Notes: generated by a model not told the origin, from the letters alone. Counted from the stretch's first letter, positions 1-37,320 are shown. The stretch is DNA of 64,000 bases from Cyanidioschyzon merolae (GCA_000091205.1 AP006500.2); one strand, 5' to 3'. Numbers and translations: made by a program.

Positions 1-266
1 CATCGAGCGCGCAAGTCGGAGCAGCGGAAGCACGCCCTCTGAGGCAGCATCTACGGACACTAGGCGCGTATCCGGGAGCCTCTGGCTCCATTCATCGACC
101 AGTGACCAGAAAAGAAACCCCCTTGCGATCTTTGGAACACCAAGAGTTCCACGCCTGACGCCCGAAACCGTTGGTGCGTTGCTTAAAGAGAATTTCTTCT
201 GCTTTTGGCGAGCTGTCCAAACGCCAAAACGCAGCCATTCGAACATAGGAAACACTAGAGCATCCG

Positions 267-2015
267 TCAATTCCAGCCGCGAAGCCACCGGCGTTTCTGC
301 TGTTCCTCGATGGTCAGGTAGAGGCCGTAGATCCATGGTGAGAAGTAGATAAACGCCGCAGCGGCAAGCAACACACCAATCGTTACAAGTTGATAGTGCC
401 CCGTTCTCGCAAGGGGTGCGCGATCCACAAGCAAAGCAGTAAGCAGTATACCGTACAGGAGACCTGGCAAATAATGGTACAGGAATGCAGCTCTTTTGAC
501 ACCGATGTAGGGAAGAAGATTCAGGAGCCATCCGGTAAACAAATATGTGCCTAGAGCGTACAGCTTCTGCTGTGAGCGGCGTTGCTTCTTCGGGAGCTCC
601 GCAGTCTGCAGTCGCCGCGGCGCTCGATCCCCGAAGCCACCGAGTCCAGCGATGAAATTTTGGGCGAGAAGAAATCCGAAAAAGAGCAACGAGCAGAGGA
701 CACTCCAGGCAATTACAGGATTCAGAATTAGGTAAACCCGAGCCTCGATAACGGGGTATTGGCTCCGAGGGGTAACCCCAGTCCCGTGCTGATTTGCTTC
801 GGCAGGTGCGCTTCGAGTCGTCTTCGGATTCTCCGCCCATGGCGCTCGTTTGGTCTGAATCCAGTACAGAATTCCTCGTAGGTTCAGTGGCCAGGACCAC
901 CACTTGCTTTCCCAGTGGTGCCGTCCAGGCACTTGTGCGTTCGCGCGCAACATCTCCTTATTCAGATAAACGAATTTGCGAAAGAATGGAACCGGCGCGG
1001 CTGCAGCATTGTACTCGGGTGAGCCGATGAGTTTCGCTCGAAAATCAGGTAGCATGAAGGCATCCCCGGAGCCACTCCGCGGAAGCAATCGGAAGTGTAT
1101 CCAAAAAAATGATGTGTATAACGCTAGCGCAAGCAGTCCGACGAAAACACATTGCCACAGGGGAATCCGTTTCTGCGACCGCAGCAGGGCTCGGCTCCCA
1201 AAGACGGACACCACACCGGCTAGCGCAGGCGTCGCTAGCGCCGTCCACTTGATGGACAAGGCCAGGCCAGCGGAGATGCCACTCCAGTAGAGCCATCTCC
1301 ATCGGGCTCGAGTGCCATCGCGAGTCCGCCACAGGCGAAGCACACAGTAGAAATGTAAAAGCAAGAAGAATAGTAACTGTGAGTCTGTTAATATGTGACG
1401 CGACTCGATTGTCGTTGCAACTTCCAAGAGTACCCAGGCAGCGGCAAGCACACTAGCCGCTACGTGCAACGAGAGCTCCCGAGCAACCAGGTACATCAGC
1501 GGTACCAAAAGCGTGCCGAAGACTGCCGCTACAGTGCGCGCACCCACGTATGACTTATCGGGATATTCTGCTCCAATTTGATCGTAGCTGAAACTCGCAT
1601 TGTATCCATGAAGATACGCACCTAGGGCGAGTAGGAGCTTCCCGAGTGGCGGGTGGATATCGAAGAAGTACTCGCCCGTGAAGTATGCTTCCACAAACTT
1701 GCCAAAGTGAAACTCATCGAATACAACTGCCTTTGGCTCCGACAATCGCCAAAAGCGTGTCAACGCTGCAAAGATGGTTAGCAACACCAGTACGACCCCA
1801 TCGAGAAGAGCGGCGTACGGCTCGGCGTTCGAGCGCAGTGAGCTGTCGCCTTCCACTAGGGAGGCGCCTCTGCTTCCTGACGCCGTCTCTGTCGTTCGAT
1901 TCAAAGGCGGTCTCATGGCTATGTGTTTTCCTCGAGCTTTCGAGAGGTCCGGAGTTCCCTGTGCTCCGGAGCGACTGTTTTTCGGGAGTTGCTGGGCGCT
2001 CTCGTGGCGGTGCAT
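267..2015 (-). CDS. GT39-family dolichyl-phosphate-mannose protein O-mannosyltransferase-like multi-pass membrane protein. Start is uncertain: in-frame ATGs end at 2015 and 1916, and the track start at 2138 is GTG.
   Basis: The PMT N-terminal signature 'FDEFHFGKFVEAYFTGEYFFDIHPPLGKLLLALG' is present. The post-TM7 motif 'FWIHFRLLPRSGSGDAFM' matches the PMT consensus 'FQVHFAILxxSGPGDAFMSS'. The loop-5/TM8 region 'HHWESKWWSWPLNL' and 'FLYHYLPGLLYGILL' also fit PMT. The protein is multi-hydrophobic. No MIR domain is visible in loop 5. Confidence 0.55.
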   Translation of the reverse strand: MHRHESAQQLPKNSRSGAQGTPDLSKARGKHIAMRPPLNRTTETASGSRGASLVEGDSSLRSNAEPYAALLDGVVLVLLTIFAALTRFWRLSEPKAVVFDEFHFGKFVEAYFTGEYFFDIHPPLGKLLLALGAYLHGYNASFSYDQIGAEYPDKSYVGARTVAAVFGTLLVPLMYLVARELSLHVAASVLAAAWVLLEVATTIESRHILTDSQLLFFLLLHFYCVLRLWRTRDGTRARWRWLYWSGISAGLALSIKWTALATPALAGVVSVFGSRALLRSQKRIPLWQCVFVGLLALALYTSFFWIHFRLLPRSGSGDAFMLPDFRAKLIGSPEYNAAAAPVPFFRKFVYLNKEMLRANAQVPGRHHWESKWWSWPLNLRGILYWIQTKRAPWAENPKTTRSAPAEANQHGTGVTPRSQYPVIEARVYLILNPVIAWSVLCSLLFFGFLLAQNFIAGLGGFGDRAPRRLQTAELPKKQRRSQQKLYALGTYLFTGWLLNLLPYIGVKRAAFLYHYLPGLLYGILLTALLVDRAPLARTGHYQLVTIGVLLAAAAFIYFSPWIYGLYLTIEEQQKRRWLRGWN

Positions 2016-2368
2016 CTGCAGTACTTGCCCAGAGGTCAGCACACGCCGAGTCTGTGAACACGCTGTGGATCGTGCAGCACGCGTGAAAGAGTGATCAAAT
2101 CCGGCCCAAAGCAGCAGTGGTGAGCGCTGCGAAGCCACGCGACACCCACAAGGGAGCGGCGCTATAGAAAGTTGCGTTTACGGACGTTCGCGCCTTTACA
2201 AATTCGCGGGCAGTACGCAGGCACGAGTCGTGGCGGGAGCGTTTTGCGGCCTGCCTCGAAGGGCGTTTCCCTAACGACTGCATGCTTGCCGTCGACGACG
2301 CTACCGTGGATGCCATAGCGGGCAACGCTGAGCTCTTCATGCATCCACAGTGTACTGGACGACATAGA

Positions 2369-2396
2369 CACACACACACACACACAGAGAGAGAGA
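2369..2396. repeat. Compound (CA)9(GA)6 microsatellite
   Basis: Read directly. Confidence 0.95.
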
Positions 2397-3051
2397 AGCA
2401 CACAGACGCACCGCCAAGGCGCTACGGCCTCATGCATATTCGCGGCTTCCATAGAGGCACGAATGTTCGTGCATCGGGGGCTTCACGTACCGTGAACGCC
2501 CCACAGGCGACAGATGCAAACAGAGGCACACAGTGCAGCGTTCCTGCAGACAGGATCGCTCGAGCCAGCTTAGGTGCTGTAAACGTCCGCCTCTACGAGG
2601 CGACGCACACGACATCCCATGTCGTTGTGGGCGTATGCTGACGCAGGGGTGCAGTTTAGCGCGTCCGGCATGGGCGGCTTTTCGAAATGATTCTTCAGCG
2701 CACGAACACCAACACATACGCGTGTAAACGTGATGGAGTCCGTCTGACTGGCTTTCACGGGCGTCGACCGCAGCGATATGGGCATACCTGCTAGCAGATT
2801 TTCCCCTGCATCGTTCGATGATGAATGTACCACATGTTCACAATTCTCGGTGTGGCCAGCGTACGCCCTAACTGGATCATGGAACTTTTCCTGTTCGACT
2901 GGTGCTCCGCAATTACCTGCATATTTCTCTATGGACATCAATCCGGCTGTGTTGTAGGCACCTTACATGGCGAAGCGCCTTTCTCGCCCCAGTCGCCGCC
3001 CAAGATGGGAAAAGCGATGTCGGTAGTCGCCGACAGCGATACGAACTTTCA

Positions 3052-3053
<2 letters not shown>

Positions 3054-3083
<30 letters not shown>
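3054..3083. repeat. (GCT)10 microsatellite
   Basis: Read directly. Confidence 0.95.
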
Positions 3084-3233
3084 ACACCCGCGCACTGGGA
3101 ACGCGAGTCACAGCGTACCCGACAACGCAGTCACTCTGTTCGTATCCGGGGCCATTCAAACTAACGCTTCGTAGGTTTTTGCGGAGTTGGCGAAACACTG
3201 CAAAGACTTTCTCCAACTGCAGTACCCGCGTGA

Positions 3234-4043
3234 ATGACGAACGCGTTCTCGGAGGAGTTGGCACTGGAAGCTGCTGGCCTAGACGCAATCTTCGGAAAAG
3301 ACTTCAAGGCTGAGGAGACCACGACAGGACACGTTCGTTGGAGTGTACCCCTCTCACACAACGGCGTGGAACTGGAGCTGGCGTTTCTTTTAGACAGTGC
3401 ATATCCACTTGACAGCGAACCTCAAGTGCGCGTGACTTGTAAGGAAGGCCTTTCACTGCGTGCAGTACGGGAGCTCGAAGGGCACCTTCAAAAGGTAGCC
3501 GCGGAGAATCGTGGTTCTCCCAGCGCTTATCTGCTGTACACAGCTGCGCAAGACTGGATCGATACGCACGATCGACGAGAGGCTGCCGAAGCTATCAGCG
3601 CTACGATTGCGTCCACGAGGCTTTCTGCTCGCGAGCCGGACTCGGCGGGCACCGGAACTACTTTCGAGACCAAAGCCGAGAGCTTTACCCAACTCGTCGA
3701 GCACGAGACGCTCGAACATGCCACCATAGACCGAACGCTGGGCACGCCGGTCACACCGGAGACTTTTGCCGCTTGGAAACAGGAATTCGACAAGTATCTA
3801 CTGGAAAACGGTATCCTCGATATCGCAAATAACGCAGATATCGAATTAGACGCCTCCCAAGGCGGCTGGAAAGGCAATTCGCGGCGGAAACCTACTGGTC
3901 GTGAGCTCTTCACCATGCACAGGGAAATGTTCGTCGATGATTTCGAGGAAAGTGATCAATGCGAAAGCACGGCGTCTGGAGCATGCGACACTCAAGGCAG
4001 TGAACTAGCAGAGCATGTGGACGCCTCACTGTTTCTCTCGTGA
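3234..4043 (+). CDS. RWDD1: RWD domain-containing protein 1 (DFRP2/Gir2-like DRG-binding protein)
   Basis: The ATG at 3234 was verified in the sequence. There is an N-terminal RWD-like fold. The C-terminal 'LGTPVTPETFAAWKQEFDKYLLE' and 'PTGRELF' align with human RWDD1 'HGTPVTIENFLNWKAKFDAELLE' and 'LSGKQLFE'. The tail is acidic. Confidence 0.75.
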   Translation: MTNAFSEELALEAAGLDAIFGKDFKAEETTTGHVRWSVPLSHNGVELELAFLLDSAYPLDSEPQVRVTCKEGLSLRAVRELEGHLQKVAAENRGSPSAYLLYTAAQDWIDTHDRREAAEAISATIASTRLSAREPDSAGTGTTFETKAESFTQLVEHETLEHATIDRTLGTPVTPETFAAWKQEFDKYLLENGILDIANNADIELDASQGGWKGNSRRKPTGRELFTMHREMFVDDFEESDQCESTASGACDTQGSELAEHVDASLFLS

Positions 4044-6473
4044 TCTGTTCCAGTCTCTGGAGAGCGTGAACACGGCACCAGAAGCCACAGATACATCGCA
4101 ATCCCAAGCTGTGTCTGTCTGTGTACGCAGAACATGACCCTTGGGTTCCCGACTCCGCGGGCGCACACGATGCCAGCCAGCAACCTCAAGTGCGGCTCGC
4201 AGCGTGACCGAGATCAGCACGCTCAGGATGACGTATGGTAAACTCATCTGGCGTGAAGATTACTGCCTACTGGGCCCCGAATCATTTGGAACAGGCAACT
4301 GATCTTGTGTTTCTAGTCGTGAAGGCGAGACGCTTCGTCGAATGCTCACGAGCGCTGATGTGGCGGCTCATTGGACGTGTGACGCAGTCTACGCAGCGGC
4401 TTGTCTTTATGGTCCATGAAAACATGCCGTTGTGGTCATGCGAATGGATGCAAAGCAATGCATGACGGCCGCACGGGTTCCGACACAAGTCCCGCATCGA
4501 AGAAAACCGGTTCTCAAGCGATGATCGCGGGCGCGGCACTATGAACCATGTCTGCGAATAGCGCGTTAGGGGGCTCCCCATGTATGGAATGGTGTGAGCG
4601 TGGCCTTCATGCGCCATGCAGAGCATGACGTCGTGAGAGGCGCAGCGGAAACAAGGTAAGCACGCGCGTTTGAAGACCCAAGGTCTCCTGCATTTGTAGA
4701 AATGGCTTGTAAATAAGGCGCTTTCTCGAAAGGTGATGTGCGAATGATTGTCCTGTGGAGTGTGATGGACCGGTGCGCTTGCGCTCTTTCAGGGCGCAAC
4801 CTGCCACCGTGGTGCTCGGCGATATCGGATGCGGTGCCCGGATATCTGTCCTGCTGTTTAGGGCGTCGTCGGAGCCGAGAGCACGGTAACGAGAAGTCAC
4901 GCCCACATGGAGTCTCGATCCAGGGGTATGCGTTTGCGTATAGTGACATTCGTGGCAAACTGAAACGGAGCGGATCGCACCCAGCGATTTTGGGCGTAAA
5001 CGCTTCACCCTGGGTCTTTTGCTACGTATATCAATACAGCCCTTTGCGAGATTTTTCTCTAACTGCATGGTTTCCTTCTCTCCTATCTCCGGTTGGAAGC
5101 TCGGCAGTCTATCGTTTCCCCTTGAGCGCTGTTTTCAATAGTCGAAATATGAAGCGTTCGGGCGCAGGTTTCACCGCTTCTGGCCGTCGTCGACGCCTTT
5201 GATGCGAAGATGGAAGTTGGGATCTACGCGCTGCTTACAATGTTCGTCTTCTTTGTATCCAGCTTGGTTGCGCAATTTCCAGCGGTGAAGCTTGAATATG
5301 GTTAGGTGTCACCGAATACCCATTACACCTCCGCTTCCGTGCGATGTTCTTTGGTGCATGGACGCATGTTTCAGTGCTCGTTGCATGTCTCCGACGCATG
5401 CAGAAAGCTGCTTTCGATGTCGTCCTCCGTTTCCGTGCTCGATGCCATAACCTACAATTACGGGCTTCTTCTGGGCGATCCCCTCGGCAAGTACGCTGCA
5501 CACTGCATGCGCAAGTGGAAGCAGTTCTATTCGAATGAGGGTTTCTCGTATGTGATGTAACCCATGGTGATAAAATTACCGGACGAAACATTCGCGCTAA
5601 GGAATAACTCGAGAAATTTCGATCCTTCTACACTTCATTCGCGCAAAGCGGTGACGGACGCTCCAATGGAAGCGATGGCTGCAATGACACATATCCGACT
5701 CCAGCGCCCTTTCCCGAGCGAGCAGAACAGACAGAGGTTTCCGGGCGCATATCGCATGAGAGATATCAAGCCATTGCCGAATGCCGTCTTGTCGAAGGCC
5801 ATGAACAGACGGCGATTCGCCTTTCCTAAGGACTCGATTACTTTTGGTGAGCAGTTCTGCGAACCGGCGGTATGAGCGTGTGAACAAGTCGTCAACGCAG
5901 GTCTTCGAAGTTTTCCTCTTCAATCTGAGTATGCGAATTCCTTTGGCCGCGAGTTGCCTTGAAACAGCGAGATCAAAAACCTGAAGCATGCGCGACTTGA
6001 GCATGCTGCATTTGAAGGAAGGATGACGCGGAATTCTGAACATAAGCATTCGATACTGATATCGCTTCGTTCATGAAATCTAGACAGAGAGCGTCGCGCA
6101 TATGATCTTGATCCCAGTCATGTGACGGATTCCAAGAGCAACGCGTGGAAGAGACTATTCCGAAAAGGCGACCGAGAAATTTGAACCTACGTACGAACTG
6201 AACAGCCTTATCGCTACGCGTCGGTAGCCGGTGCTCTAAATCAAAACGCGGTCGGGAAACTAGTCGAAACGTAGGCACCGGGCGACCGGTTCACTGTTCC
6301 GTTTTTATCTGACACGGGAATAGGAGAGGAAAGCGGCAAAATCGAGTCTTTCCTAGATATACGCAGCTCAATCGTACGCAGTTGGCTCTGTTGGCAACGC
6401 ACTAGCGTCCAAAGCGATTGCAGTCGACTGCATCGCCTCGATAAGGCGAAATACGCACTACCAAATGTCATCT

Positions 6474-7040
6474 TTAGACAACAGGCAGTCTTTTAGTTTT
6501 TATGATCTCAATATGGATGGCGCTCTGAAGGCGCGTCTGCTGAATCCATGGCAAGTTCTGACGCCGGGGCTCGTACTCGTCCAGGAGAGGGACCGAGCTC
6601 GTCTGGACGCTATAAGTGAGCCAAGTGCCGTAGCGTTCTACGAGCACCAAGCAAGCCCGAATAGCTCGTTCCATCGCCCTTCCCGTCGCGTGGAGCGTGA
6701 AGGTATTATACTGTTTATCAAAAAGTACCCGTCTTGCTCGTTCGAGCACGCCCACGAAGCGACAAGAGCCACTGAGAAAAATTTCGTTCTGCTGGCTTCT
6801 CCGACGCCCAACCGGAGGCGAGCGGAAGCGGTACAGCTCAGGGTCTCGTAGTTGACTCTTGGATACGTCGCAGCGGACGTCGTTGGGATCCTTGTGCTCA
6901 GCGCGAGAGCGTGCGTTGCTGAACGCGAGCACCAGTGGCCGTACCTCGTCGGTGCAGCTCACGCTGGACTGTCGCAGGTGTTTCGCTGATTTTCCGCTGC
7001 CCTCAGCGCCCTGCGACTTGCGTTTTTTGCCCGGGGACAT
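6474..7040 (-). CDS. POP7: RNase P/MRP protein subunit POP7/Rpp20-like (Alba fold)
   Basis: The first ATG is at 7040 (track start 7070 is GTG). 'NEIFLSGSCRFVGVLERARRVL...TFTLHATGRAMERAIRACLVLVERYG...SVPLLDEYEP...QSAIHIEIIK' is collinear with human POP7 'NDIYVNMKTDFKAQLARCQKLL...EIYIHGLGLAINRAINIALQLQ...STVELVDELEP...NNSAIHIRVFR'. Confidence 0.6.
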   Translation of the reverse strand: MSPGKKRKSQGAEGSGKSAKHLRQSSVSCTDEVRPLVLAFSNARSRAEHKDPNDVRCDVSKSQLRDPELYRFRSPPVGRRRSQQNEIFLSGSCRFVGVLERARRVLFDKQYNTFTLHATGRAMERAIRACLVLVERYGTWLTYSVQTSSVPLLDEYEPRRQNLPWIQQTRLQSAIHIEIIKTKRLPVV

Positions 7041-8436
7041 ACCGCATGGAGCTGCAGTCGAAGAACGCACGCGATCCCCTGCTTGGCCTTACGATGGTTG
7101 GTCGAAAGCACACGCGAGCGCTCTGCGTTGCACGTCGGCTCTCGACTCGCACCTGATATCGATACGGCGTACTTGCTCATTGCGGAACTGCGTCTGTAGA
7201 GCCGAGGTACGGACAGTGTCTCTTGTTCAGTGATGTATGATATGTACTATATGGTTTGATTCTGTACAATTAGATTATATATTGAGACAGCACCTGTGTC
7301 GGCGGCGCAGTATGTCCAAGAAGCTCAATGTTTCTTCGATCCACCTGGCACCAGTGCATGTTCTGATGCGGGCAGCTAGTCGGGGGCGGCAAATTATCAC
7401 GAGCGTTTGCCTCCAGATAGAGGCCAGCTCGCCTTCGAATCCGCTTTGGTGCAAACAACTAATTCGGGATATGGTGAAAGCGTAACCATCTGGAATATAC
7501 AAGTACTTGAATGGCAACGCTTGGATCTTGCACCTCCTGTGTAATTCCTGGAACGAAGCGAACGCACTATAGCTCTTGCGACTGGAATGAAGACGGCGTT
7601 TGCTTTTCCGCAAGCAGCATATTGGAAACGGAAACACTCCCGATTCCAAGTTTCCCTCAATGGCAAGAGATATGTTCACTATCTCTCCTCGGGAGCTGTA
7701 GGCACGCATGAATGAACCGAGCGCACTGTTGGAATGCGACAAGCGGGAACGGCACATGTTTTTTGTAAATTCCAAAACAGATCTTATCTCACGAGGACGA
7801 ATTTCAGGAAATATCCTCATACATCTGAATTTGTGCACGCAACCTGACGCGGATATACTGTTTGCGCACATAGATACCCTCCTTGTCTGGATCAATGCCG
7901 GCATACTTGAACGAAAGTACTGCGTGCACGCAAGGACATTCTCCGTGCCACATACGGTCAGTGACACAAAAACTGTCCGACGACCATGAAGAGTAAATAT
8001 GTCGACTTACGCACAGACGCCTCCCAGCCTTGTCTGGCCGGCCCCTGGCATCGGTTTCAGTTCCTCTCTGCACACTTCGAGCCCGAGGGCATGCTGTACA
8101 AAGTTTGCATCGCTCAGCCTTTAGAGTGCCCTTTGCAGCACAGCACATTTCCTGATACGGGTACCGGCGTTGAAGTCTCTGTTCAGACACCCCTTGCGTT
8201 TGTTACCACTCGTCAGAATCCCCAATGCAGGGATTCCTCGAACTTGTGCCCGCAGTTCCATGACAGCATCGTGGTCGTCTCATCGGACAAGCACGCTTTC
8301 TTCTTCCTTTTCGTCACTTGCGCTTCTTCACTCGATAGTCTGCGAGCAGCGTATTTGTCTCGTTTCTGCCCAACAAGGCAATGAGTGCCAGCCAGAATCC
8401 CCGACTCGCCTGTCCATACCTTTCCCTTAGATATTT

Positions 8437-9320
8437 TACTCCTTCCAACGAACGTACTTTGCGCATATATGGTATCCAACGCGAAAGAAGCATAGGATAA
8501 CACATATCCATAGCCGGTACACAATTGAAGTGATATGCTGGAAAACGCGAAAAAGCATAGGATAACACATATCCATAGCCGGTACACAATTGAAGTGATA
8601 TGCTGGAAAACGCGAAAAAGCATAGGATAATACATATCCATAGCCGGAACACAATTGAAGTGATACACTGGAAAACGCGAAAAAGCATAGGATAACACAG
8701 ACTCGTAGCCGGAACACAATTGAAGTGATACACTGGAAAACGCGAAAAAGCATAGGATAACGCATATCCATAGCCGGAACACAATTGAAGTGATATGCTG
8801 GAAAACGCGAAAAAGCAGATGATAACACACACTCATAGCCGGTACACAATTGAAGTGATATGCTGGAAAACGCGAAAAGCATAGGATAACACACACTCAT
8901 AGCCGGTACACAATTGAAGTGATATGCTGGAAAACGCGAAAAAGCATAGGATAACACACACTCATAGCCGGTACACAATTGAAGTGATATGCTGGAAAAC
9001 GCGAAAAAGCAGATGATAACACACACTCATAGCCGGTACACAATTGAAGTGATATGCTGGAAAACGCGAAAAAGCATAGGATAACACACACTCATAGCCG
9101 GTACACAATTGAAGTGATATGCTGGAAAACGCGAAAAAGCATAGGATAATACATATCCATAGCCGGAACACAATTGAAGTGATACACTGGAAAACGCGAA
9201 AAAGCATAGGATAACACACACTCATAGCCGGTACACAATTGAAGTGATACACTGGAAAACGCGAAAAAGCATAGGATAATACATATCCATAGCCGGAACA
9301 CAATTGAAGTGATACACTGG
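8437..9320. repeat. 65-bp minisatellite of about 13-14 tandem units. The consensus is 'cataggataacacatatccatagccggtacacaattgaagtgatatgctggaaaacgcgaaaaag', with unit variants such as acacacactcatagcc, atacatatccatagccggaacac and gcagatgataacacac.
   Basis: The periodicity was read directly, for example 8506/8571/8636. It produces the stack of overlapping minus-strand ORFs in the ORF track (8213..9456). Confidence 0.9.
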
Positions 9321-9324
9321 AAAA

Positions 9325-9519
9325 CGCGCGCCACCGCCGTCGACGCCGGCGCGCTTCCGCTGGAGCACTGCGCGTCCGCCGGCTCCTGCACCCGGTGCCG
9401 TGCCCGGGTGTGGACTTGTCGTTTGGGGAGTTGTTGCACGGCGGGTGGGTCGCCACTCCAGCTACGGTTGCGTTTGAACTGTGCTACTTTCTATCTTCAG
9501 ACTGGGCACGTTCATCGCG
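9325..9519 (+). promoter_or_regulatory. Very GC-rich (CpG-island-like) block between the minisatellite and the RPB1 ATG. It is a putative RPB1 core promoter/5' leader.
   Basis: The run 'gcgcgccaccgccgtcgacgccggcgcgcttccgctgg...' is GC-rich (well above flank) and lies immediately 5' of the ATG at 9520. Confidence 0.3.
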
Positions 9520-12500
9520 ATGGACTATGACCTGCAGACTTTCTCCTCAGCAGAGCTGAAGGCCGTAGGTGCTGTTCAGTTCGGGCTCCTGTCCCCGGAC
9601 GAACTGCGGCGCCTCTCGGTGGTGCGGGTTGAGTACGACGTAGCGTTCGAGCGTGGCGTGCCCAAGGCCGGGGGGGTGCTGGATCCTCGGCTGGGGGCAA
9701 TCGACCGGAACTTTCCATGTGCAACTTGCGAGGGGTCGTCGATCGACTGTCCGGGGCACTTTGGTCACATCGAGCTGGTCAAACCGGTGTTCAACGTGTT
9801 GATGCTGTCCACCGTGCTGAAAACGCTTCGTTGCGTGTGTTACTATTGTTCCCGTTTGCTTGTTGATGGTTCAGACTCGCGCATGCTGCGGGCAGCGAGG
9901 ATTAAGGATCCCGTCAAGCGTTTTCAGGCGGTTTTTCAACTCTGTAACGGAACAAGGGTTTGTGGCGGAGGCGCCGACAGCTCGGAGGAACAGCTGATGC
10001 TGCCTGCCGCCGTTCTCGAGGCTAGGGAGCGTATTGGCAAGCCTCGGGAAGGGTGCGGGAACCTTCAACCACATGTAACACGTGACGGCCTGCGAATTCT
10101 CGCGGAGTTTCCTGACGCGGAGGCCTTTGCAGCCGAGCGCAAGCAGGAGCTTGCCGCAGAGCGCGTCCAACAGATATTCCGACACATTCGTGACGAAGAC
10201 CTAGAGCTCCTCGGCTTTCATCCGCGGTTTTCCCGACCAGAATGGATGGTTCTGAGCGTGCTACCGGTGCCGCCACCACACGTGCGACCCTCGATCCAGA
10301 TGGATGCAGTGTCACGAGGGGAGGACGATCTGACGTTCAAACTGGGCGACATCATCAAGGCGAACAATGCCCTGCAGCGACTGGAGGCGGAAGGAGCGCC
10401 CGCCCATGTTATTCGGGAGCAGTACGTGCTTCTGCAATTCCACGTTGCCACATTTATGAACAACGATTTGCCGGGCATGCCTCGAGCGACACTGAGAAGT
10501 GGACGTCCGCTCAAGTCCATCGCCCAACGACTCAAAGGCAAAGAGGGTCGTGTCCGCAACAATCTCATGGGCAAAAGGGTGAACTTTTCGGCACGAACGG
10601 TGATCACTGCAGATCCGCAGCTGGCGCTTGATGAAGTCGGTGTCCCGCGCTCCGTGGCTATGACCCTCACCTACCCCGAAGTAGTAACGCCGTATAATAT
10701 CGACCGCTTATGGGAAGCGGTGCGAAACGGACCCAACGCCTATCCGGGTGCATTGTTTGTGATTCGAAACGATGGCAAGCGGATTGCGTTGCAGTTTGTG
10801 CGCCGATCGGCGGATATCGTGCTCGAACCGGGCTGCGTCGTGGAACGACACCTTCTGAACGGAGACCTAGTGCTCTTCAATCGTCAACCGTCTTTGCATC
10901 GCATGTCGATCATGGGACACCGGGTGCGCATCCTACCGTACTCAACGTTCCGCATGAACCTCAGCGCAACCAGTCCCTACAATGCGGATTTTGACGGTGA
11001 CGAAATGAACCTTCATGTCCCGCAGTCGGAGGAGGTTCGAGCGGAAATCAAGGAACTCATGGCAGTCCCCAAGAATATTGTATCTCCGCAGGCAAATCGC
11101 CCAGTGATGGGCATCGTGCAGGATTCACTGCTGGGCTGCATGCTCTTTACATTGCGAGATACGTTTTTGGAGGAAGACACGGTCTTTAATCTTCTGTTGC
11201 ACTTGCCGCACTTTGACGGACGCATTCCGGCACCAGCAATTCTGAAGCCGCGGCCACTCTGGACGGGAAAGCAGATCTTTTCGCTGCTTTTACCAGACGG
11301 CGTGAATCTAGAGCGCCTCTCCAACGGACATCCCGATCATGAGCGTACAATCATGACGCCCAGTGATACTCGCGTGCTCATCCAGAACGGAGAGCTCATC
11401 ACCGGCATCGTAGACAAACGCACGGTAGGATCCAGCGCGGGGTCGCTGATTCACGTCACCTGGAAGGAGTCAGGTCCAGAGAGAACGAGTCAACTGATCT
11501 CCGATATTCAACTCTTAATCAATTATTGGCTTATGCAGAACGGTATGAGCATTGGCATTGGAGACTGTATTGCTGATGCACACACCATGGCCGCTATTAA
11601 CCGAACGATTCAAGAAGCGAAGGACGAGGTGCGGCAGCTTATCCGTCTGGCACAAGAGGGTCGCCTCGAGCGTCAGCCCGGCAAAACGATGCTGGAGTCG
11701 TTCGAGGCCTGCGTGAATCGCGTACTGAACAGTGCCCGCGACAAGGCCGGTGGCTTTGCACAGGAGAGTCTCCTTCCAAGCAACAACATCAAGCGGATGG
11801 TGTCCGCCGGCAGCAAAGGCTCCTTCATTAATGTTTCCCAGATTGTGGCATGTGTTGGCCAGCAGAACGTCGAGGGCAAGCGCATCCCGTACGGCTTTCG
11901 TCGCCGAACACTTCCCCATTTCGTGGTGGACGATTTGTCACCCGAGGCCCGAGGATTCGTGGAGAACTCGTACCTCCGGGGACTGACTCCCGAGGAGGTC
12001 TTCTTTCATGCCATGGGCGGTCGAGAGGGTCTCATCGACACCGCAGTGAAGACTGCTGAAACCGGCTACATCCAGAGACGCCTCATGAAGGCCATGGAAG
12101 ACATTCGGATTGAATATGACGGTACTGTACGCAACTCGCTGGGCGATGTGATGCAGTTCCTCTACGGAGATGATGCCGCAGACGGGGCCATGCTGGAGGT
12201 GCAGGAGCTGCGCCTTGTGCGCGCAAGTAACCAGGAAATGGAAGCGCTCTTTCGTTTAGACGTATACGACCGAGATTTCGGCCTCGGCTACATAGAACCT
12301 GACCTAATCGACGCGGTGCGAACGGATCCTGAAGTGGCGCTCGAGCTCGAAGAAGAGTACCAACAGCTCTTGGCGGATCGCGAGCAACTCTGCGCGGTCT
12401 TTCCCACGGGTGAGGCCAAGTGGCCGCTTATGGTGAATGTTCAGCGGTTGATCCAGAACTGTCGCTCTATTTTCGGTATTCAACACGATACACTGAGCGA

Positions 12501-14979
12501 CTTGCATCCCCGGCAAATCATTCAAGGCGTGCGCGTACTGCTCCAGCGCTGCGTCGTTGTTCCTGGCGACGATGAGCTCTCCCGCGAGGCCCAGCGGAAC
12601 GCAGTACTGCTCTTTGCGGCCCACGTGCGGGCAGAGCTCGCCACGAAGCGTGTCCTGCAGATTCACCGGCTGAACAGCAAAGCTTTTGCCTGGCTTCTCG
12701 GCGAGATTGAGACGCGCTTTGTGCGAGCACGAGCAACACCTGGTGAAATGGTTGGCGCGGTTGCTGCCCAGTCGCTGGGTGAGCCTGCCACCCAGATGAC
12801 CCTGAACACATTTCATTTTGCGGGTGTGTCGGCAAAGAACGTCACCCTGGGAGTCCCGCGTCTCAAAGAGCTGATCAACGTAGCTCGTCAAGCGAAAACT
12901 CCATCTGTTACGGTGTATCTGAAGAGCGGCAAAGATAAGGAGCTGGCGAATATTGTGCAGAGTGAGCTAGAGCAGTGCCGACTCCGCGACGTGGTCGAAA
13001 GCAGCGCCATCTACTTTGATCCGGATCCCGCGAACACCGTTGTGGAAGCGGATCGGGAATGGGTCCGCGACTACTTCGACTTGCCCGATGAGATGGACCG
13101 GCCCGAGCGCTTATCGCCTTGGCTTTTGCGCATCGTCCTGAGCACCGAGATGATGATTGACAAACGCCTGCGATTGAGCGATGTTGCTCGTCGTCTGCGG
13201 GCGGAGTTTGGTGGCGACCTCTCCGTTGTCTATTCGGATGACAATGCCGAGCAACTGGTGATGCACATTCGCATGGCCGGAGACGAGTACGAGAAAGGCG
13301 CGCTGGGCGTTCCGATTCTCGGCGAGTCGGAGCGCCTTGACGATACACTGAACCTACTGGGGCCTGGCGACATGACCGCGGGCGGGAACCAGTCGCTAGA
13401 GGCACTGGACTCGGGCACCGTTGAGGAGCAAGATGATGTTTTTCTGAAGCGTATTGAACTAGCGCTCCTAGAGGATATGCAGCTGAAAGGGATTCCAGGT
13501 ATTCGAAAGGTGTTCCTGCGTCAGACGCAACGTGTTCTCTTTGATCCCGAGGCAGGATCTTTTCGCAGTGCGCCTGAGTGGGTGCTAGATACCGAAGGGA
13601 CGGCGCTATTGGCGGTGCTTTCCCATCCGGATGTGGATGCGAGGCGCACGATTTCCAACGAGATTACCGAAGTGCTACAAGTGCTCGGGATTGAGGCTGC
13701 TCGGCAAGCGCTTTACAATGAGATGTACGCGGTGCTGAGTTTTGATGGATCCAGTGTTGGATACCGGCACTTGGCGTTGCTGGTCGAGGTGATGACCTGT
13801 CGCGGAATGCTCATACCTGTATCTCGATTCGGAATTAATCGACTCGAGACGGGACCATTGATGCGCTGCACTTTTGAAGAGACCGTCGAGATTCTCGCAA
13901 CCGCGGCGACCTTTGGCGTTCGTGATGCTTGTGAGGGTGTCTCGCAAGCGGTGATTCTGGGGCAACGAGCAAAAGTAGGCACCGGGGCCTTTTCACTAAC
14001 GCTCGACGAGTCTGTACTGAATCAGGCAGAAACGGAAACGAGCGTTGCTGCAGTGCGGGACGCCCACGTCGGCGGTGTCTTTGCGAAAGCCTATGCTGCA
14101 GCCGACGTGGATGCAGATCACTGGACACCAGCGTACACGCCAGGAGCAACGCCTGGGATGGCCAGCGACGGCTTCGCAGCGCCCTGGACTCCGAGTTTGA
14201 ACCTCGCGAGTCCGTACGGTTCATTTTCCCCAGCCGTTGGCTTTAGCCCAGCAACGAGCACATATGTCGGTGGTGATGCGATGAAGGATGCCGGTCGGTA
14301 TGGGCTCGGTGGAACCTCACCCTTTGCGAGCTTCTCCGCTAGTGCGACGACTCCGAATTGGGCTCCGAGTCCCGCGGGGGGCGGGACCGGTACGTTGGGC
14401 GCATTTTCGCCATCGAGTCCCGCCTATTCGCCAACGAGTCCTCGTTTGGTGTCGCCGACGAGCCCTGCATACTCACCAACAAGTCCTGCGTATTCGCCGA
14501 CGAGCCCTGCATACTCACCAACAAGTCCTGCGTATTCGCCGACGAGCCCTGCATACTCACCAACAAGTCCTGCGTATTCGCCGACGAGCCCTGCGTATTC
14601 GCCTTCATCACCGAATGTTGCATATTCGCCTTCATCACCGAATGTTGCCTATTCACCTTCTTCACCGAATGTTGCCTATTCACCTTCTTCACCGAATGTT
14701 GCATATTCACCTTCTTCACCGAATGTTGCATATTCGCCCTCATCACCGAATGTTGCATATTCGCCCTCATCACCGAACGTTGCGTACTCGCCTTCTTCAC
14801 CGAATGTTGCATACTCGCCCTCATCACCGAATGTAGCGTATTCACCTTCTTCACCGGTTGCATATTCACCCTCTTCACCGAACGTTGCCTACTCACCCTC
14901 ATCACCGAATGTGGCATACTCGCCTTCGTCACCGGCGTTTTCACCATCGTCACCTGTATATTCTCCAAAAAACAAATAG
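9520..14979 (+). CDS. RPB1: DNA-directed RNA polymerase II largest subunit (RPB1), with its C-terminal repeat domain
   Basis: The ATG at 9520 gives 'MDYDLQTFSSAELKAVGAVQFGLLSPDELRRLSVV'; the track start at 9481 is GTG. The zinc motif 'CATCEGSSIDCPGHFGHIEL', 'NADFDGDEMNLHVPQS' and the trigger-loop and bridge regions are present. The C-terminus has YSPTSPA heptads followed by YSPSSPNVA nonamers. It is a single 5.4 kb exon. Confidence 0.97.
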   Translation: MDYDLQTFSSAELKAVGAVQFGLLSPDELRRLSVVRVEYDVAFERGVPKAGGVLDPRLGAIDRNFPCATCEGSSIDCPGHFGHIELVKPVFNVLMLSTVLKTLRCVCYYCSRLLVDGSDSRMLRAARIKDPVKRFQAVFQLCNGTRVCGGGADSSEEQLMLPAAVLEARERIGKPREGCGNLQPHVTRDGLRILAEFPDAEAFAAERKQELAAERVQQIFRHIRDEDLELLGFHPRFSRPEWMVLSVLPVPPPHVRPSIQMDAVSRGEDDLTFKLGDIIKANNALQRLEAEGAPAHVIREQYVLLQFHVATFMNNDLPGMPRATLRSGRPLKSIAQRLKGKEGRVRNNLMGKRVNFSARTVITADPQLALDEVGVPRSVAMTLTYPEVVTPYNIDRLWEAVRNGPNAYPGALFVIRNDGKRIALQFVRRSADIVLEPGCVVERHLLNGDLVLFNRQPSLHRMSIMGHRVRILPYSTFRMNLSATSPYNADFDGDEMNLHVPQSEEVRAEIKELMAVPKNIVSPQANRPVMGIVQDSLLGCMLFTLRDTFLEEDTVFNLLLHLPHFDGRIPAPAILKPRPLWTGKQIFSLLLPDGVNLERLSNGHPDHERTIMTPSDTRVLIQNGELITGIVDKRTVGSSAGSLIHVTWKESGPERTSQLISDIQLLINYWLMQNGMSIGIGDCIADAHTMAAINRTIQEAKDEVRQLIRLAQEGRLERQPGKTMLESFEACVNRVLNSARDKAGGFAQESLLPSNNIKRMVSAGSKGSFINVSQIVACVGQQNVEGKRIPYGFRRRTLPHFVVDDLSPEARGFVENSYLRGLTPEEVFFHAMGGREGLIDTAVKTAETGYIQRRLMKAMEDIRIEYDGTVRNSLGDVMQFLYGDDAADGAMLEVQELRLVRASNQEMEALFRLDVYDRDFGLGYIEPDLIDAVRTDPEVALELEEEYQQLLADREQLCAVFPTGEAKWPLMVNVQRLIQNCRSIFGIQHDTLSDLHPRQIIQGVRVLLQRCVVVPGDDELSREAQRNAVLLFAAHVRAELATKRVLQIHRLNSKAFAWLLGEIETRFVRARATPGEMVGAVAAQSLGEPATQMTLNTFHFAGVSAKNVTLGVPRLKELINVARQAKTPSVTVYLKSGKDKELANIVQSELEQCRLRDVVESSAIYFDPDPANTVVEADREWVRDYFDLPDEMDRPERLSPWLLRIVLSTEMMIDKRLRLSDVARRLRAEFGGDLSVVYSDDNAEQLVMHIRMAGDEYEKGALGVPILGESERLDDTLNLLGPGDMTAGGNQSLEALDSGTVEEQDDVFLKRIELALLEDMQLKGIPGIRKVFLRQTQRVLFDPEAGSFRSAPEWVLDTEGTALLAVLSHPDVDARRTISNEITEVLQVLGIEAARQALYNEMYAVLSFDGSSVGYRHLALLVEVMTCRGMLIPVSRFGINRLETGPLMRCTFEETVEILATAATFGVRDACEGVSQAVILGQRAKVGTGAFSLTLDESVLNQAETETSVAAVRDAHVGGVFAKAYAAADVDADHWTPAYTPGATPGMASDGFAAPWTPSLNLASPYGSFSPAVGFSPATSTYVGGDAMKDAGRYGLGGTSPFASFSASATTPNWAPSPAGGGTGTLGAFSPSSPAYSPTSPRLVSPTSPAYSPTSPAYSPTSPAYSPTSPAYSPTSPAYSPTSPAYSPTSPAYSPSSPNVAYSPSSPNVAYSPSSPNVAYSPSSPNVAYSPSSPNVAYSPSSPNVAYSPSSPNVAYSPSSPNVAYSPSSPNVAYSPSSPVAYSPSSPNVAYSPSSPNVAYSPSSPAFSPSSPVYSPKNK
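14440..14940 (+). repeat. Coding tandem repeats of the RPB1 CTD. A 42-bp unit (two YSPTSPA heptads) is repeated about 3.5 times, then a 27-bp unit (YSPSSPNVA) about 11 times.
   Basis: The nucleotide units are near-identical, for example 'tattcgccttcatcaccgaatgttgca' repeated. Confidence 0.9.
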
Positions 14980-16972: not shown

Positions 16973-19900
16973 AGAGAGATGAATCAAGTCAAGTTAGTTG
17001 GATCGGATTGGCGCTGGAACTCCCACGCCCATACACACACACACACAGTGCCCAAGCTCGCATAGAACAGGTGACGCAGTTTGAGATCGGTTTCGCGAAC
17101 GAGCGGCAGGGCGTTGGTACCGCGGCGCCACGCGCTCGGGCAGGCCCTGATATTGGACGGCACGGAAATCATGCCTATTTTTGGTATAAATTGGATACAA
17201 ATGACATGCATGAACCCCACATTGCTGAACAGAATAGGACATACAGGATCGAAGCACTGCCAGATGCTTGGCAATCCCATGTCGCATTTTGGCGAGCGGG
17301 GCCACAACACTCGCGTCTGAGGATGTTAATTTCGGACGCTAGGTGTTCTTTTGCAGGCGACTGGTAACCGCACGAGCGTTCTATCCTGCGTGCTGTGTCA
17401 GCTCCAGCGTAAGCGTTCCTGCTCGTCTTGGGGTCTTTCCAAGGAAACGCTACCTCTGGAGAAAGCTCGGCTCGAGTTTTGCGTGCGCATGTCGGAACAC
17501 GGAGCAGAGCACGGGAGCCAGGGCGCCGCAGCCCCAGAAACACAACGCAGCATTTCTGGGCGTTTGCTGGGCCTTCGCTTTATGCAACGAGCGCTGGAAC
17601 GAACACAGCCTGAGCACCGGGATCATCTGCGCACTACGGGAACGCTACCTCATCAAACTTCGGGCAAAGCACGGCACTCAGTTGAAAAGAAAGCACAACA
17701 GCCAGCGAACGAGGAGCGAAGGCTCCTTGTTGTGTGTGATTACGAGTACAGTGTAGCTGCTGAGGACCTGAAGCTGAGTCAATATGCCACAGCTCGACAG
17801 CGTTACGGCTTCGAGACAACAGCGGTTTTTTTTGAAGAAGAAGCGACGACCGGTCTGGTGCTAGCTCGCACCGAGTCTTCGCCCAACAACGTCGATGAAA
17901 CCTTGCGGCAGGCACCGGGGTCGACACCTCGGCACCCCGATACGCGTCACGGAGACGAGCGCTTCCGCGAACTAGCCCATGATGGCCGCGCTCGACGGCG
18001 GCTAGATGGTTCGCGTGTGGCAAAGCGTTCCGCACCGTCTTCGCTCGCCGAAGCGTCGTTCTGCAGCGTCCGTGGACACCAGCGGAAACCGTGTCGTTTC
18101 TCAAAGTTGACCAGGTCGTCGCAACAAGGAGCAACTACGCGAAGACGCTAGCGAAATGGCTGACTCCCGACCTGAAATGGAGGATACACCAATGACCCGG
18201 GATTGATGGAGCACACTCGACGATGCCGCTTACCTGCGCCTAGATTTGAACACTTGTGCAGCCATCGACTGTGTCACTTGACTTCAGCAAGGTGATTCGG
18301 GATCAAATTCCAGTGATTCGGATTCATTGTTGCCACTTATCTGCGTCCCGCGTTCCGTACTCCTGCGGATACGGACAGCGTTCCGTACTCCTGCGGATAC
18401 GGACAGCGTTCCTCGGCGCTCCTCCAAAGTATACGTGGAGAATCGAGCTGCCAGCGATCCAGCTGCCTTACAACCAGCACCGTCCAGAGAGACACGAGGA
18501 CTGCAAGATGCCTTGGTGCGGTGCGTCATCGACTTGGCCGATGGAGACGTTTGCCGTGCCGCTTGTCTCGTAACGAGTATTATCGGATAATGGATCATCA
18601 TTGCCGTCTACCAACTGTGCTGCAAAATCATTTTATCCGCCTATCCGCGGCACGTCAGCCTCTCCGTATTGCTGAACCGCACCATAGCTGTGGCCTGCTC
18701 CGGGCGAGAATCCAGTTGCCTCTCTCGTAGACACTGATTTTTTCATTGAAAGTATTCAGCGTTACAGCACAGTGCCCAGACTGAGTAGTGCATAATAGCT
18801 TCAAAAAAGCGCATGACACAAAGCCGCTGGACACACTCTCGGAGCACGTGATGACCTATACGGATGCTCATCGAGGCGTTCAATACTCGGTGCAGAGGGT
18901 GCTTGCATGCATTTTTGCCGGCGGCGTTACACCATCGCAAGCCTCTCACGTTCGACTGCTGCGCCAGTTGACGTTGAGTTCGCATAACGTACTCCATCTG
19001 GTACATATGTCTGTGTCCAATGCTCTTCTTTTCATCCTGTTTGAGCGTGCAACCGCGCTTGTGATGCGTTTACGTCGTCGTGAAGGCATCCACGAGAATC
19101 ACGCTGAATCGAATCCTCCGCACGTTCAACGCCCACGTCGACGGAGCGTGCGTGCAACTTTTACGTGTTACAGCGTATCCAACTCCATCGGCTACCGCCA
19201 CTAAACGACACGAGTTGTCTGTTACTTAGTTTTCCAACTCATTGAACAAATTGTCAAATGCAAGCTTTTTGTGCGCGTTAGACCGGAACAGCTGGTGATC
19301 CTGGCACGGTCTCATGCACTCCTGCCAAGATCGCTGACTTGAGCCACATTGATGCCCGCGTACCGTCTGAATGAGGCGTGCGGAGCTTTCTGCTCCGCTC
19401 GATGCAGAACTCAGAGCGTCGAGACGGATCCCCGTGATGTTCGTCCACTTGTTGGCATGCCTTCTGGCGTCCATGATGCCGCGTACTCAACCATTCGGAG
19501 CCCTGGGAAAATTGAGCGGTTTGATGGGCTTTCCGTTCAGGCCTTTAACGCGGTGCTTTTGATTGGTAGAGGTACGGCGACGGCCTTGACGGGTTTCAAC
19601 CCCGGATCCAGGCCCGTGATGACGGCTTCTACTTCGTCTGGATTGAACGTTTCAATACGGGCGTCGCTGCTCGACACACCTTTCGGTATCATCATGTGCA
19701 TGCTGCGTGAGATTCCGTTGGTCTGCATTGTCCCTGCAAAATGCTTTCAATGTCCACTTTATATATGAGAGATCTTGAATGAGATGCCCCAACGCTCTCT
19801 GCGAAGCTCATCGCGTCATGCAAAGCTCCTCGCAGAGACCAGCCGTTGCTTATTGCATAGCGAATATTCCACAAAGGTGTCTACAGTTATATCACGGGTC

Positions 19901-21097
19901 ATGTGCTGAAATACTGGAACCACATCTTATTGGATATTGAGGATGCTAGGGCGCTCGGCTTCGACGTGCGCGTCTGCTTTGTTCTGAGCCGGCAGGCTCT
20001 GTTCTGAAAAACGTGTCGCAAATTGCGAACAAGTCAGCGATCACATTCCAGGCGTTTTTGCTAGACGAGCTTCACTGGCCGCAGACCGAAACCGCGGCTA
20101 TAAGCTTGGACGTTCCGGGGTGACACTCGTTCTCGTTGCGACTTCGCTTCGGAAGTCGCAGTCAACTCGAGCGCTTTGATCACCACGAGCTCGTCCCTGG
20201 CCTCCTTCGACACTGCGAAAGATCCAATTCACCAGTCGCAGCTTTTATTTGGTCTTGTGAGGTTATAACGGCCACAAATTGCGCGATGTGCGCCCCATGA
20301 AGCGCTCGACATTGACTCGCATCTGATTTCTGAGGTTCCTTTGATACGTTTTTGACAATCGTACAGCACAGCAGAGCTTTTCCGATCGCCGATATCGTGT
20401 GGCGCCCCCGGAAAGCATCCTGGGAATCGTGTATAGGAATTTGTGATGCAATGCTCAGAACTTGTTGCATCATGTCTCCGGAGCATCAGTTTTGTTGTTG
20501 CACGAATGTTGGATCACAATATTCTTGAGCAACTTGGACATCTGGTGGCCCTGCTCTCGGAACGCCAAAGAATAGCAGCATGACGATTGCGTCAAGCCGA
20601 GTGATGCTGGGCGAGAGACAATCGCGTAGGAGGCTTCGCGACACCACATGCCGTCCTGCATCTCACATTTCGGAAGATGCTCCCTACTGATATCTATTCG
20701 TTGAGAAGCAGTGATTATGGTTTCAGAATGATGTATCCTGGATGACACATTTCCATTCCAGACCCGTCTCATTCTCCTTTTGAGAGAATCTTTCTTCTTT
20801 TTGTCAAGTTTTATTTTCTCCGTCTTCACTTTCACCTTACCATGGTGTTCTGGTATGAAAGTAGTCACTATACTTTATATCCGTCTTGTGTCCTCGGGAC
20901 TCAGACGTACTGGGCGGACGTTGACACCGAAGCCTACCTTTTCTGTCCGTGTATAGATCTACTTTTGCTCAGGAAGTTTTACGTCACCTTTTGCGTCGCG
21001 AGCATGCCCAAAAACCGATGCACGGCTTGCCGGTCCGTCCTCCGTGCGACCAGAGGAGCTACACATCATTCCAGGGCTGATGAAGGTAGCGACCGAC

Positions 21098-21253
21098 TTG
21101 TCGAAGAACGGTGCCCCGGATGCGAACGACTCCACTACTGATCCGTCTATGGAAAAAACGCGTTTCCCGTGGAAAAGCGACCGACTTGTCGAAGAACGGT
21201 GCCCCGGATGCGAACGACTCCGCTGTTGATCCGTCTATGGAAAAAGGCGTTTC
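21098..21253. repeat. Tandem duplication of a ~78-bp unit ('gaccgacttgtcgaagaacggtgccccggatgcgaacgactcc...'). There are two copies.
   Basis: Read directly. The copies differ at a few positions. Confidence 0.85.
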
Positions 21254-22524
21254 ACATGGAAACGAAAGCCTTCAACTGGATTGAACCATAGCGACCAGGC
21301 TGGCACGAAGCACCACTGCTCGCCCGATCTCGGCTGCGTACTCCATGACCGCGTTGGAGTCACGGAGAACGAAGATGTGGAAGAGCTGGGTAGAAGAATG
21401 TGGGTACCAGAACCCACGATGATTACCTCAACGAAGCCTGGGCTGTTGAACGATCCTGTCCGATTCGCAGTTTTTCGGCACCTGCAAGAAACAATTGTCG
21501 CTAAGGCGGATGCTGCCAGAATGCGCACTCGTCTCGTCTTTACGAACAGCAGCTTATCTCTCTTTGAATCACCATGTACAGGTCTACCACTTCACACGAT
21601 TAAAGTCGCATCACGGAAGACGAACACCCGTTTCTCCTGTAACAAGCGTTCGCGCTTCCGTGTCCAATCGACAGTATGGTGGTCACCGAGCAACGGTCTC
21701 CCATACAAGCGCGCTTTTTATTTTTTTTATCCGTCTCTCTTCATCGCTGTCGGTATCAACGGTACGGAAGCTTCGCATCCTATTGCTTCTTCAGAAATAT
21801 TTGGTAGAGAACGTATGGAATGGATTTAATTGACGAGGAAACACTTGTGCAGAAATTGTTCGACGAATTCTGGTTTACAGACACGATATGCAGCTTACGG
21901 AGAACGATGACAATGGTTCATCCACCTGCTGACCGTAGAAGGAAGGTATTGTGGACATCAACAGGTTTCTAGCAAGTTACCACCAAAAGCACCGATTATC
22001 TCCGCGTCCTCTATCTGCATGCTACATCATACATTCCTTTTGTTGACTACCTGCAATACATCGAAGTGAAACCAAATTCACACACTGATGCACGAGTTCC
22101 AGAGTGCGCTGCTCTGAGCATGACGCCCACCATGCCGTGGCAAACATAATTCTAGGACAAGACACACCGCAGGCATCCTCGAAGCTCGCGAGGCTCAACC
22201 GGGTTCCCCGCTCGCAGGCAAAAACGAACCGCAGATGCGCCCCCTGCGCTCAGGAGGTGTGGCGCCCGCTCATCGTTCCTTGTTGCACGCTACCGTATCT
22301 GGCTCGTCAGCGCAAACTTGTCGGTAAAATATCCTGAACTTTCGCCAGAATGCTGCAGAGATGCTTCAGGCAATGAACAGGTCGGAGGATCCACCAGACA
22401 CGACGTCATCGTGACGACGGGCAGCGTGCCTGTGTGGGTTCTGCAGCGCAGGCGCACCAGCGACCAACATTGTTTTCAATTCTGCAAGTGTGTTTACAAG
22501 CGAGGAATCAAAGCATTTGGATGG

Positions 22525-27825: not shown

Positions 27826-27888
27826 CCATCCATCCATCCATCCATCCATCCATCCATCCATCCATCCATCCATCCATCGACAAAGTAA
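27826..27888. repeat. (ATCC)n / (GGAT)n tetranucleotide microsatellite of about 15 units
   Basis: 'tccatccatccatcc...' was read directly. Confidence 0.95.
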
Positions 27889-37117: not shown

Positions 37118-37320
37118 GATGGAGCCAGCAGACTGCGGCCTCGTACAAGCTTGTTCTGACGAGTGATCTTCGTCGACAGCGAGTGTGGGTTGTTCTTGTA
37201 CACGAGGACGTAGCAAAGGAGTGCCTGAAATAGCCGGCAAACACCTACACACACACACACGAACGCAGGTAGCACGGTCCAACACAACAGCTCGCCGACG
37301 AGATTTTCGCGATGCCAGTA

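Follow-up and report, generated by a model that had tools for sequence, protein, structure and literature searches.

Minisatellites of the Jeffreys type, which are MVR-mappable, consist of units of 10–100 bp at a single locus with fixed junctions, and their alleles differ both in the number of units and in the interspersion of a few unit variants. Their edges are more stable than their interior, and the arrays turn over much more rapidly than point substitutions accumulate in the flanks. Tandem repeats are also found in promoters. Those of yeast (for the concept, see PMC3566118) lie between an upstream gene and a start codon, vary in copy number between strains and recur as an element at more than one promoter of the same genome segment; most of them are short and AT-rich, with a proven effect on nucleosome occupancy and expression. 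The human INS VNTR and MAOA-uVNTR are polymorphic minisatellites located a few hundred bp upstream of a single-copy gene, and allele-specific expression is known for them. In the 60/81-bp spacer repeats of Xenopus rDNA, finally, units of tens of bp are arrayed directly upstream of the promoter; these are Pol I elements of proven enhancer activity, with sequence in common with the promoter.

Here we analyse a 65-bp tandem array in front of RPB1 in a 64,000-nucleotide stretch of the Cyanidioschyzon merolae genome (the whole of this stretch is hereafter called the window), and document its tandem structure, its restriction to one locus, its polymorphism, its absence from the sister genus and the conservation of the block between it and the gene. 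The array resembles the Jeffreys-type minisatellites in all the respects listed above, but its unit is AT-rich and not of the GC-rich type, its host is a unicellular, haploid-dominant red alga whose 16.5-Mb genome is very poor in repeats, and its alleles are known from metagenome contigs, not from pedigrees. Its position between two genes, its strain-variable copy number and the recurrence of such an element at a second promoter are features shared with the yeast repeats, which are mostly shorter and functionally proven, whereas the RPB1 array is at most a candidate for such a function and belongs to an essential housekeeping gene. As with the two human VNTRs, the array is a polymorphic minisatellite a short distance upstream of a single-copy gene, although it is missing in the nearest sequenced relative. 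The Xenopus repeats are comparable in unit size and placement; in contrast to them, the unit at RPB1 has only the 6-bp AACGCG in common with the promoter block, and the gene is transcribed by Pol II. We conclude that the array is probably a lineage-specific, single-locus hypervariable VNTR which arose in situ at the edge of the RPB1 core promoter and is tolerated there, and that it is most likely an ordinary fast-evolving repeat rather than a required promoter element.

The coordinates of the locus are given in Table 1. The product of the window's RPB1 is identical, residue for residue, to BAM82457.1 / XP_005538493.1 of C. merolae 10D, and all seven Rpb1 Pfam domains are found in its homologues. 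Judged by RPB1, the nearest other genome is that of Cyanidiococcus yangmingshanensis (86% protein identity). The Rpp20-like neighbour of RPB1 is also present in Cyanidiococcus and in the metagenome contig L009. The gap between the two genes is about 2.45 kb, and several other gaps between long ORFs in the window are of similar size. Nearly all C. merolae genes are without introns, and ORFs were therefore read as genes. In the CTD of RPB1 (14406–14934), two families of repeats succeed one another, first canonical YSPTSPA heptads with periods of 21 and 42 bp and then nonamer-like YSPSSPNVA repeats, about 12 in number, with a period of 27 bp. Since the members of the RPB1 cluster range from 1791 to 1832 aa, the length of the CTD probably varies between strains.

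Table 1. Features of the RPB1 upstream region and of the second promoter-proximal array (positions in the window).
Feature	Position	Strand	Remarks
Rpp20-like RNase P/MRP subunit, divergent upstream neighbour	6474–7070	-	Pfam PF12328, E=8.5e-7
Unique non-coding spacer, Rpp20-like gene to array	7071–8477	.	50% GC; 0.6% strain divergence
65-bp minisatellite	8478–9328	.	13 full units plus 6-bp partial unit; only array copy in the window
Edge unit, 66 bp	8478–8543	.	AAAGAAG replaces AAAAAG; first unit in 10D, L005, L007 and L009
AACGCG at 3' junction	9323–9328	.	First 6 bp of a 14th unit; also belongs to the ACGCGCGCC motif
GC-rich block, array to ATG	9329–9519	+	66% GC; 80% in the first 84 bp (9329–9412)
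Most conserved 76 bp before ATG	9444–9519	+	Local alignment with Cyanidiococcus L002 9925–10000
Pyrimidine-rich TTCTATCTTC	9489–9498	+	31 bp upstream of RPB1 ATG; candidate initiator-region motif
RPB1, RNA polymerase II largest subunit	9520–14979	+	Intron-less ORF, 1819 aa, CTD heptads
Second promoter-proximal VNTR, 47 bp x 5.9	50612–50890		Ends 138 bp upstream of purF-like ATG (51029)

Tandem Repeats Finder reported the array with a period of 65, 13.1 copies, 93% matches and a score of 1385. Splitting on AACGCG gave 13 full head-to-tail units from 8478 to 9322 (eleven of 65 bp, one of 66 bp and one of 64 bp), a unit length within the range of minisatellites and VNTRs (~10–100 bp). An earlier note on this DNA had described about 13–14 copies of a 65-bp unit, which agrees with these counts, and the unit string that it quoted, ccatagccggtacacaattgaag, was found in units 1–2. 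The array is real, but the start proposed there (8437) lies 41 bp too early, as 8437–8477 is unique flank. The 5' boundary is sharp, because the 65 bp 5' of the array (8413–8477) aligned with the unit no better than shuffled sequence did. At the other end, the distance from the array to the RPB1 ATG, given in the note as roughly 200 bp, was measured as 191 bp, and the very GC-rich block of about 190 bp said to follow the array is present at the expected place. The note had further suggested an ordered higher-order structure, with an alternating pattern as an example. The unit map of strain 10D, LDEMHIJAIAEFE (one letter for each unit, according to type), does contain local duplications of two- or three-unit blocks (I-J-A / I-A and E-F-E), but a regular T/A alternation is absent from it.

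With regard to base composition, the array has 41% GC compared to a window mean of 55.8%, with 42% A and 17% T on the plus strand, and the kilobase in which it falls (8001–9000) has, at 46.8%, the lowest GC content in the window. The region upstream of the array had been described as gene-free and AT-richer; it is indeed gene-free, but its GC content is only slightly below that of the window. Each unit contains ATG triplets on the plus strand (in ATATGC and AGATGA).

Six alleles were compared, that of 10D and those of five metagenome samples, and each of the six has a different unit map. Full maps were obtained for 10D (13 units, see above), for L007 (SDACTAUAAACV, 12 units), whose contig spans the array, and for L009/L004 (KAGACJCQ, 8 units), the L009 allele being spanned within a 28-kb contig. 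The maps of L003 (DNFOHBBAGPB...), L005 (KAGR...) and L008 (...WAXYFBZ) are partial. The length polymorphism that the earlier note had wanted checked is thus seen among natural strains, with 8, 12 and 13 units (in the metagenome contigs, units may have been collapsed during assembly from short reads). That other strains have unit types missing in 10D (such as K, G and C) is a robust result. Altogether, the 55 units of the six alleles represent 26 types, which are mosaics of 12 variable positions, while 53 of the 65 unit positions are invariant, including GGAAAACGCGAAAAAGC and ACAATTGAAGTGATA.

The junctions of the array were the same throughout. The 5' junction (...ATATGGTATCC/AACGCG, with the slash marking the junction) is common to all alleles, with one C/T difference in L003, and the 3' junction (CTGGAA/AACGCGCGCCACCGCC) is identical in all of them. 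Moreover, the 66-bp AAAGAAG form usually stands first in the array and a unit of the ATACATATCC type invariably stands last, indicating that the edges are anchored and the interior shuffled, as expected under unequal exchange. Divergence across the array amounts to 5–6% in a forced alignment, as compared with 0–1.5% in the coding and non-coding flanks, and the interior of the array has been reshuffled about ten times faster than the flanks diverge. The array thus combines the features of a minisatellite or VNTR, i.e. a single locus, variation in unit number at this locus and variants interspersed in differing order, and its unit maps show the pattern that marks hypervariable minisatellites which evolve through slippage, unequal exchange and conversion. 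One of the contigs has an unusual structure: L005 6507–11774 matches the window from 8787 down to 2280 in reverse, continues with about 2.7 kb of unmatched sequence and then matches window 1–2582 in forward orientation. Window 2280–2582 therefore appears twice, inverted, and this inverted duplication represents either a structural variant or a chimeric assembly.

No second copy of the 65-mer was found in the window, even by blastn with a word size of 7. The 22-nt core CCGGWACACAATTGAAGTGATA was present in three JGI metagenome contigs, all of them collinear with window 2280–9489 at 97–99% identity, and the 196-aa minus-strand ORF of the array, when used as a protein query, retrieved only four predicted proteins, whose contigs all carry this locus. 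All copies in public metagenomes that were obtained by the DNA pattern and the protein-level searches, from five samples, belong to the same orthologous locus. The 22-nt core was absent from 185,579 bacterial and archaeal genomes as well as from the IMG/VR viral contigs. As far as these searches of the window and of the metagenome, prokaryote and viral collections reach, the repeat is specific to the RPB1 promoter region. The earlier note had asked whether the 65-mer occurs elsewhere as a dispersed satellite, and the results from the 64-kb window and the metagenomes speak for a promoter-specific repeat. Satellites and centromeric repeats are recognised by long arrays or many loci; the 65-mer occupies 0.85 kb at a single locus.

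The same Rpp20 (-)/RPB1 (+) arrangement is found in Cyanidiococcus, with an intergenic region of 680 bp. This region (in L002) contains no tandem repeat, and it has no similarity to the 65-mer unit or to the spacer 7071–8477. An ancestral unit was sought both in the Cyanidiococcus intergenic region and in the 5' flank of the array, neither of which scored above shuffled sequence. Conservation with Cyanidiococcus is confined to the last ~76–190 bp before the ATG: positions -76 to -1 are strongly conserved, with blastn homology beginning at window 9444, and the GC-rich character is kept also upstream of -76. The ACGCGCGCC motif at the 3' junction of the array is common to Cyanidiococcus, and a ACGCGCGCCA...CCGCCGTCG match with L002 begins exactly at this junction (overall alignment z ~2.7), so that the terminal AACGCG looks like native promoter-edge sequence. 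A conserved cis-element is expected at the RPB1 promoter of related species, and the array is not found at that of Cyanidiococcus L002. Since the sister genus has RPB1 without the array, the array appears not to be required for RPB1 expression. An essential role is also made less likely by the restriction of conservation to the stretch between array and ATG, and by the fast reshuffling of the interior of the array.

Over the bases covered in five strain contigs (191 bp in L008 and L009, 108 bp in L001 and 88 bp in L006), the GC-rich block 3' of the array showed no differences, and it is probably the core promoter and 5' UTR of RPB1. If the 5' UTR extended through the array, it would contain many upstream ATGs, and we therefore infer that the TSS is located in the conserved 76–190 bp 3' of the array (within 9329–9519). 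Exact copies of TTCTATCTTC occur at only two places in the window, in this block and at 51003–51012, 26 bp upstream of the ATG of the purF-like gene described below, and the sequence may be a pyrimidine-rich motif of the initiator region. In both promoters TTCTATCTTC comes after the GC-rich block, and its counterpart at the Cyanidiococcus RPB1 is CTCTATCC. The predicted fold of the GC-rich block was unremarkable compared to shuffled sequences (z=-1.5). The 5' ends of the RPB1 contigs L001 (1–108) and L006 (1–88) fall within the 80%-GC stretch, 88–108 bp ahead of the ATG, rather than at the border of the array, and many other contigs of the RPB1 cluster have a similar length (~7.6 kb). The breaks in the 80%-GC stretch suggest GC-related loss of coverage.

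The window contains a second array of comparable placement, located in front of a gene for amidophosphoribosyltransferase (purF-like). Each of its 47-bp units carries TTTCGCGC, and a GC-rich CCGCCG block is found 3' of the array. Six copies of the unit are present in 10D, L010, L011 and L013 and two in L012, and several metagenome contigs break inside this array. The two arrays have a common layout (array, GC-rich block, TTCTATCTTC and ATG in this order), which hints at a non-random association with promoters. In addition, a perfect (ATCC)15.8 microsatellite at 27816–27878 ends 59 bp upstream of an ATG at 27937, the start of a 555-aa ORF with a BRO1-domain homologue in Cyanidiococcus. Promoter-proximal tandem repeats thus recur in the C. 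merolae genome, a situation also known from the promoters of yeast and human (PMC3566118). It should be noted that most intergenic DNA in a compact genome is promoter-proximal anyway, and the recurrence can therefore not be called an enrichment.

Some other repeats were observed in the window, and a possible rearrangement in one of the contigs. A dispersed repeat of about 1.2 kb is present in three copies within 12.7 kb (31009–32251, 37319–38561 and 42537–43659), the first two of which are inverted and 100% identical over 1243 nt, while the third is 99% identical; the ORFs inside it are not coding-like, and it may be one of the dispersed repeat families of the genome. Short intergenic tandem duplications were seen at 21088–21262 (88 bp x 2), 63615–63797 (96 bp x 2) and 18350–18412 (28 bp x 2.2). 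Contig L014 (1–435, compared to window 50560–50994) carries an identical purF-like gene, but upstream of a point 35 bp ahead of the ATG, exactly at CGCTCTTCTATCTTC, its sequence is wholly unrelated; this is due either to a rearrangement or to an assembly chimera.

With regard to its origin, the RPB1 array most likely postdates the split from Cyanidiococcus. The AACGCG microhomology would have seeded a duplication at the upstream edge of the GC-rich RPB1 core promoter, in which a 65-bp segment between two AACGCG hexamers was presumably duplicated by slippage and then amplified. Later expansion, contraction and reshuffling may be ascribed to replication slippage, unequal sister-chromatid exchange and gene conversion, and the same turnover processes would maintain a similarity of about 93% among the units and at the same time scramble their order. 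Transcription of RPB1 would start in the conserved 76–190 bp, and the array would be tolerated and dispensable upstream DNA, presumably neutral. The 53 invariant positions of the unit could reflect constraint instead of concerted evolution.

Such constraint would be compatible with the array being a copy-number-dependent cis-regulatory module, in which the number of units would tune the transcription of RPB1 or Rpp20, either through a site in every unit (e.g. the invariant GGAAAACGCGAAAAAG CGCG-type box, GATAA or the E-box-like palindrome CAATTG) or by disfavouring nucleosomes. We consider this rather unlikely, although several observations are in its favour. The array lies in the promoter region of RPB1 and varies in length among strains, as promoter tandem repeats do; it ends close to the ATG and adjoins the conserved promoter block, it has at least 8 units in all spanning alleles with most unit positions invariant, and a second polymorphic array, with perfect TTTCGCGC sites and the same layout, is located upstream of the purF-like gene. 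Promoter tandem repeats were reportedly found to affect expression in yeast by Vinces and co-workers in 2009. An influence of tandem repeats in promoters on expression is known (Sawaya et al. 2013, PMC3566118). On the other hand, the sister genus lacks the array in front of the same gene pair, and invariance of the units is expected from concerted evolution alone. The unit also gave little sign of a known site. The strict E2F consensus TTTSSCGC has 21 matches in the window, none of which is within 8478–9328, and the nearest unit sequence, ACGCGAAA, agrees with it at 7 of 8 positions. AACGCGAAA was observed twice outside the array compared to 0.8 expected, i.e. with no excess in the window, and the candidate GTAC core is at a variable unit position. 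A cluster of E2F/MCB-type sites was rejected on the lack of a strict E2F match together with the lack of AACGCGAAA enrichment. Quite improbable, in our opinion, is a wider form of the idea, according to which promoter-proximal VNTRs recur as devices of evolvability in the C. merolae genome, which is compact and poor in transcription factors; the RPB1 array would then set the dosage of the largest Pol II subunit and the 47-mer array the capacity for purine synthesis in hot-spring populations, and the invariant GGAAAACGCGAAAAAG and ACAATTGAAGTGATA would be multimerised putative factor sites.

The remaining explanations are less plausible still. An insertion of mobile or viral DNA carrying an internal tandem repeat could explain why the intergenic region exceeds that of Cyanidiococcus by 1.8 kb and why neither the spacer 7071–8477 nor the unit has detectable homology to the intergenic region of that genus, but such a remnant is very unlikely, given that no other copies were found in the window, the metagenomes, IMG/VR or the prokaryote genomes, that no transposase or reverse-transcriptase ORF and no terminal repeats flanking the region were found, and that the microhomology of the 3' junction with native promoter sequence fits a duplication in situ. 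Derivation from a transposable element was rejected on the lack of dispersed copies, terminal repeats, Pfam matches and coding signal (7071–9026), and a foreign origin on the empty scans of bacterial/archaeal genomes and IMG/VR with the 22-nt core. Very few transposons are known from C. merolae (PMC1955436). The location of the array in the lowest-GC kilobase and in a gene-free spacer would suit a role in chromosome maintenance, be it as a replication origin, as a fragile site or as DNA associated with the centromere. This is nevertheless extremely unlikely for an array of only 0.85 kb at a single locus, with a GC content that is not extreme, that is missing at the syntenic site in Cyanidiococcus and has no potential for forming structures. 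Two units folded as single-stranded DNA gave z=0.14 compared to shuffles, and instability driven by hairpins was rejected on this ground. Each C. merolae chromosome has one CENH3-enriched region (PMC3744952), and about half of the annotated repeats carry H3K27me3 (PMC5405695); these two studies and that on transposons (PMC1955436) give no coordinates tying their data to the array, and no published statement on the locus was found in the C. merolae repeat, centromere and H3K27me3 literature. A minus-strand repeat protein or a structured RNA, lastly, is effectively refuted and has a negligible probability. Minus-strand ORFs of 115–227 aa do run through the array, and metagenome pipelines call 'hypothetical proteins' across it (P0135–P0138), but 65 is not divisible by 3 and the ORFs are broken differently in each allele. 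The minus strand is free of stops because of its low A content (see the T content of the plus strand above). The codon log-likelihood was negative or about zero for the ORFs in 7071–9026, whereas it was positive for 15 of 15 real genes (+0.03 to +0.17). No Pfam family scored above threshold for these ORFs, Rfam covariance models had no match at E<=1 in 6800–9700, and the sole tRNA detected in the window is at 53907, with none in the spacer or array.

If the array is neutral, as our preferred explanation of a tolerated in situ VNTR implies, it would be a hypervariable marker for typing strains and populations of Cyanidioschyzon, because the difference in its flanks is below 1% and yet the unit map differs in every allele sampled. 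For the cloning of promoters it is worth keeping in mind that the conserved ~190 bp 3' of the array probably constitute the functional RPB1 promoter, and for the annotation of metagenomes that the ORFs of the array are mis-called as proteins. Promoter replacement by homologous recombination is feasible in C. merolae, so that an influence of the array on RPB1 dosage is directly testable. If the array does tune this dosage, the idea of evolvability through promoter repeats would reach beyond yeast, from which it comes, to a core housekeeping gene of an early-branching red alga.
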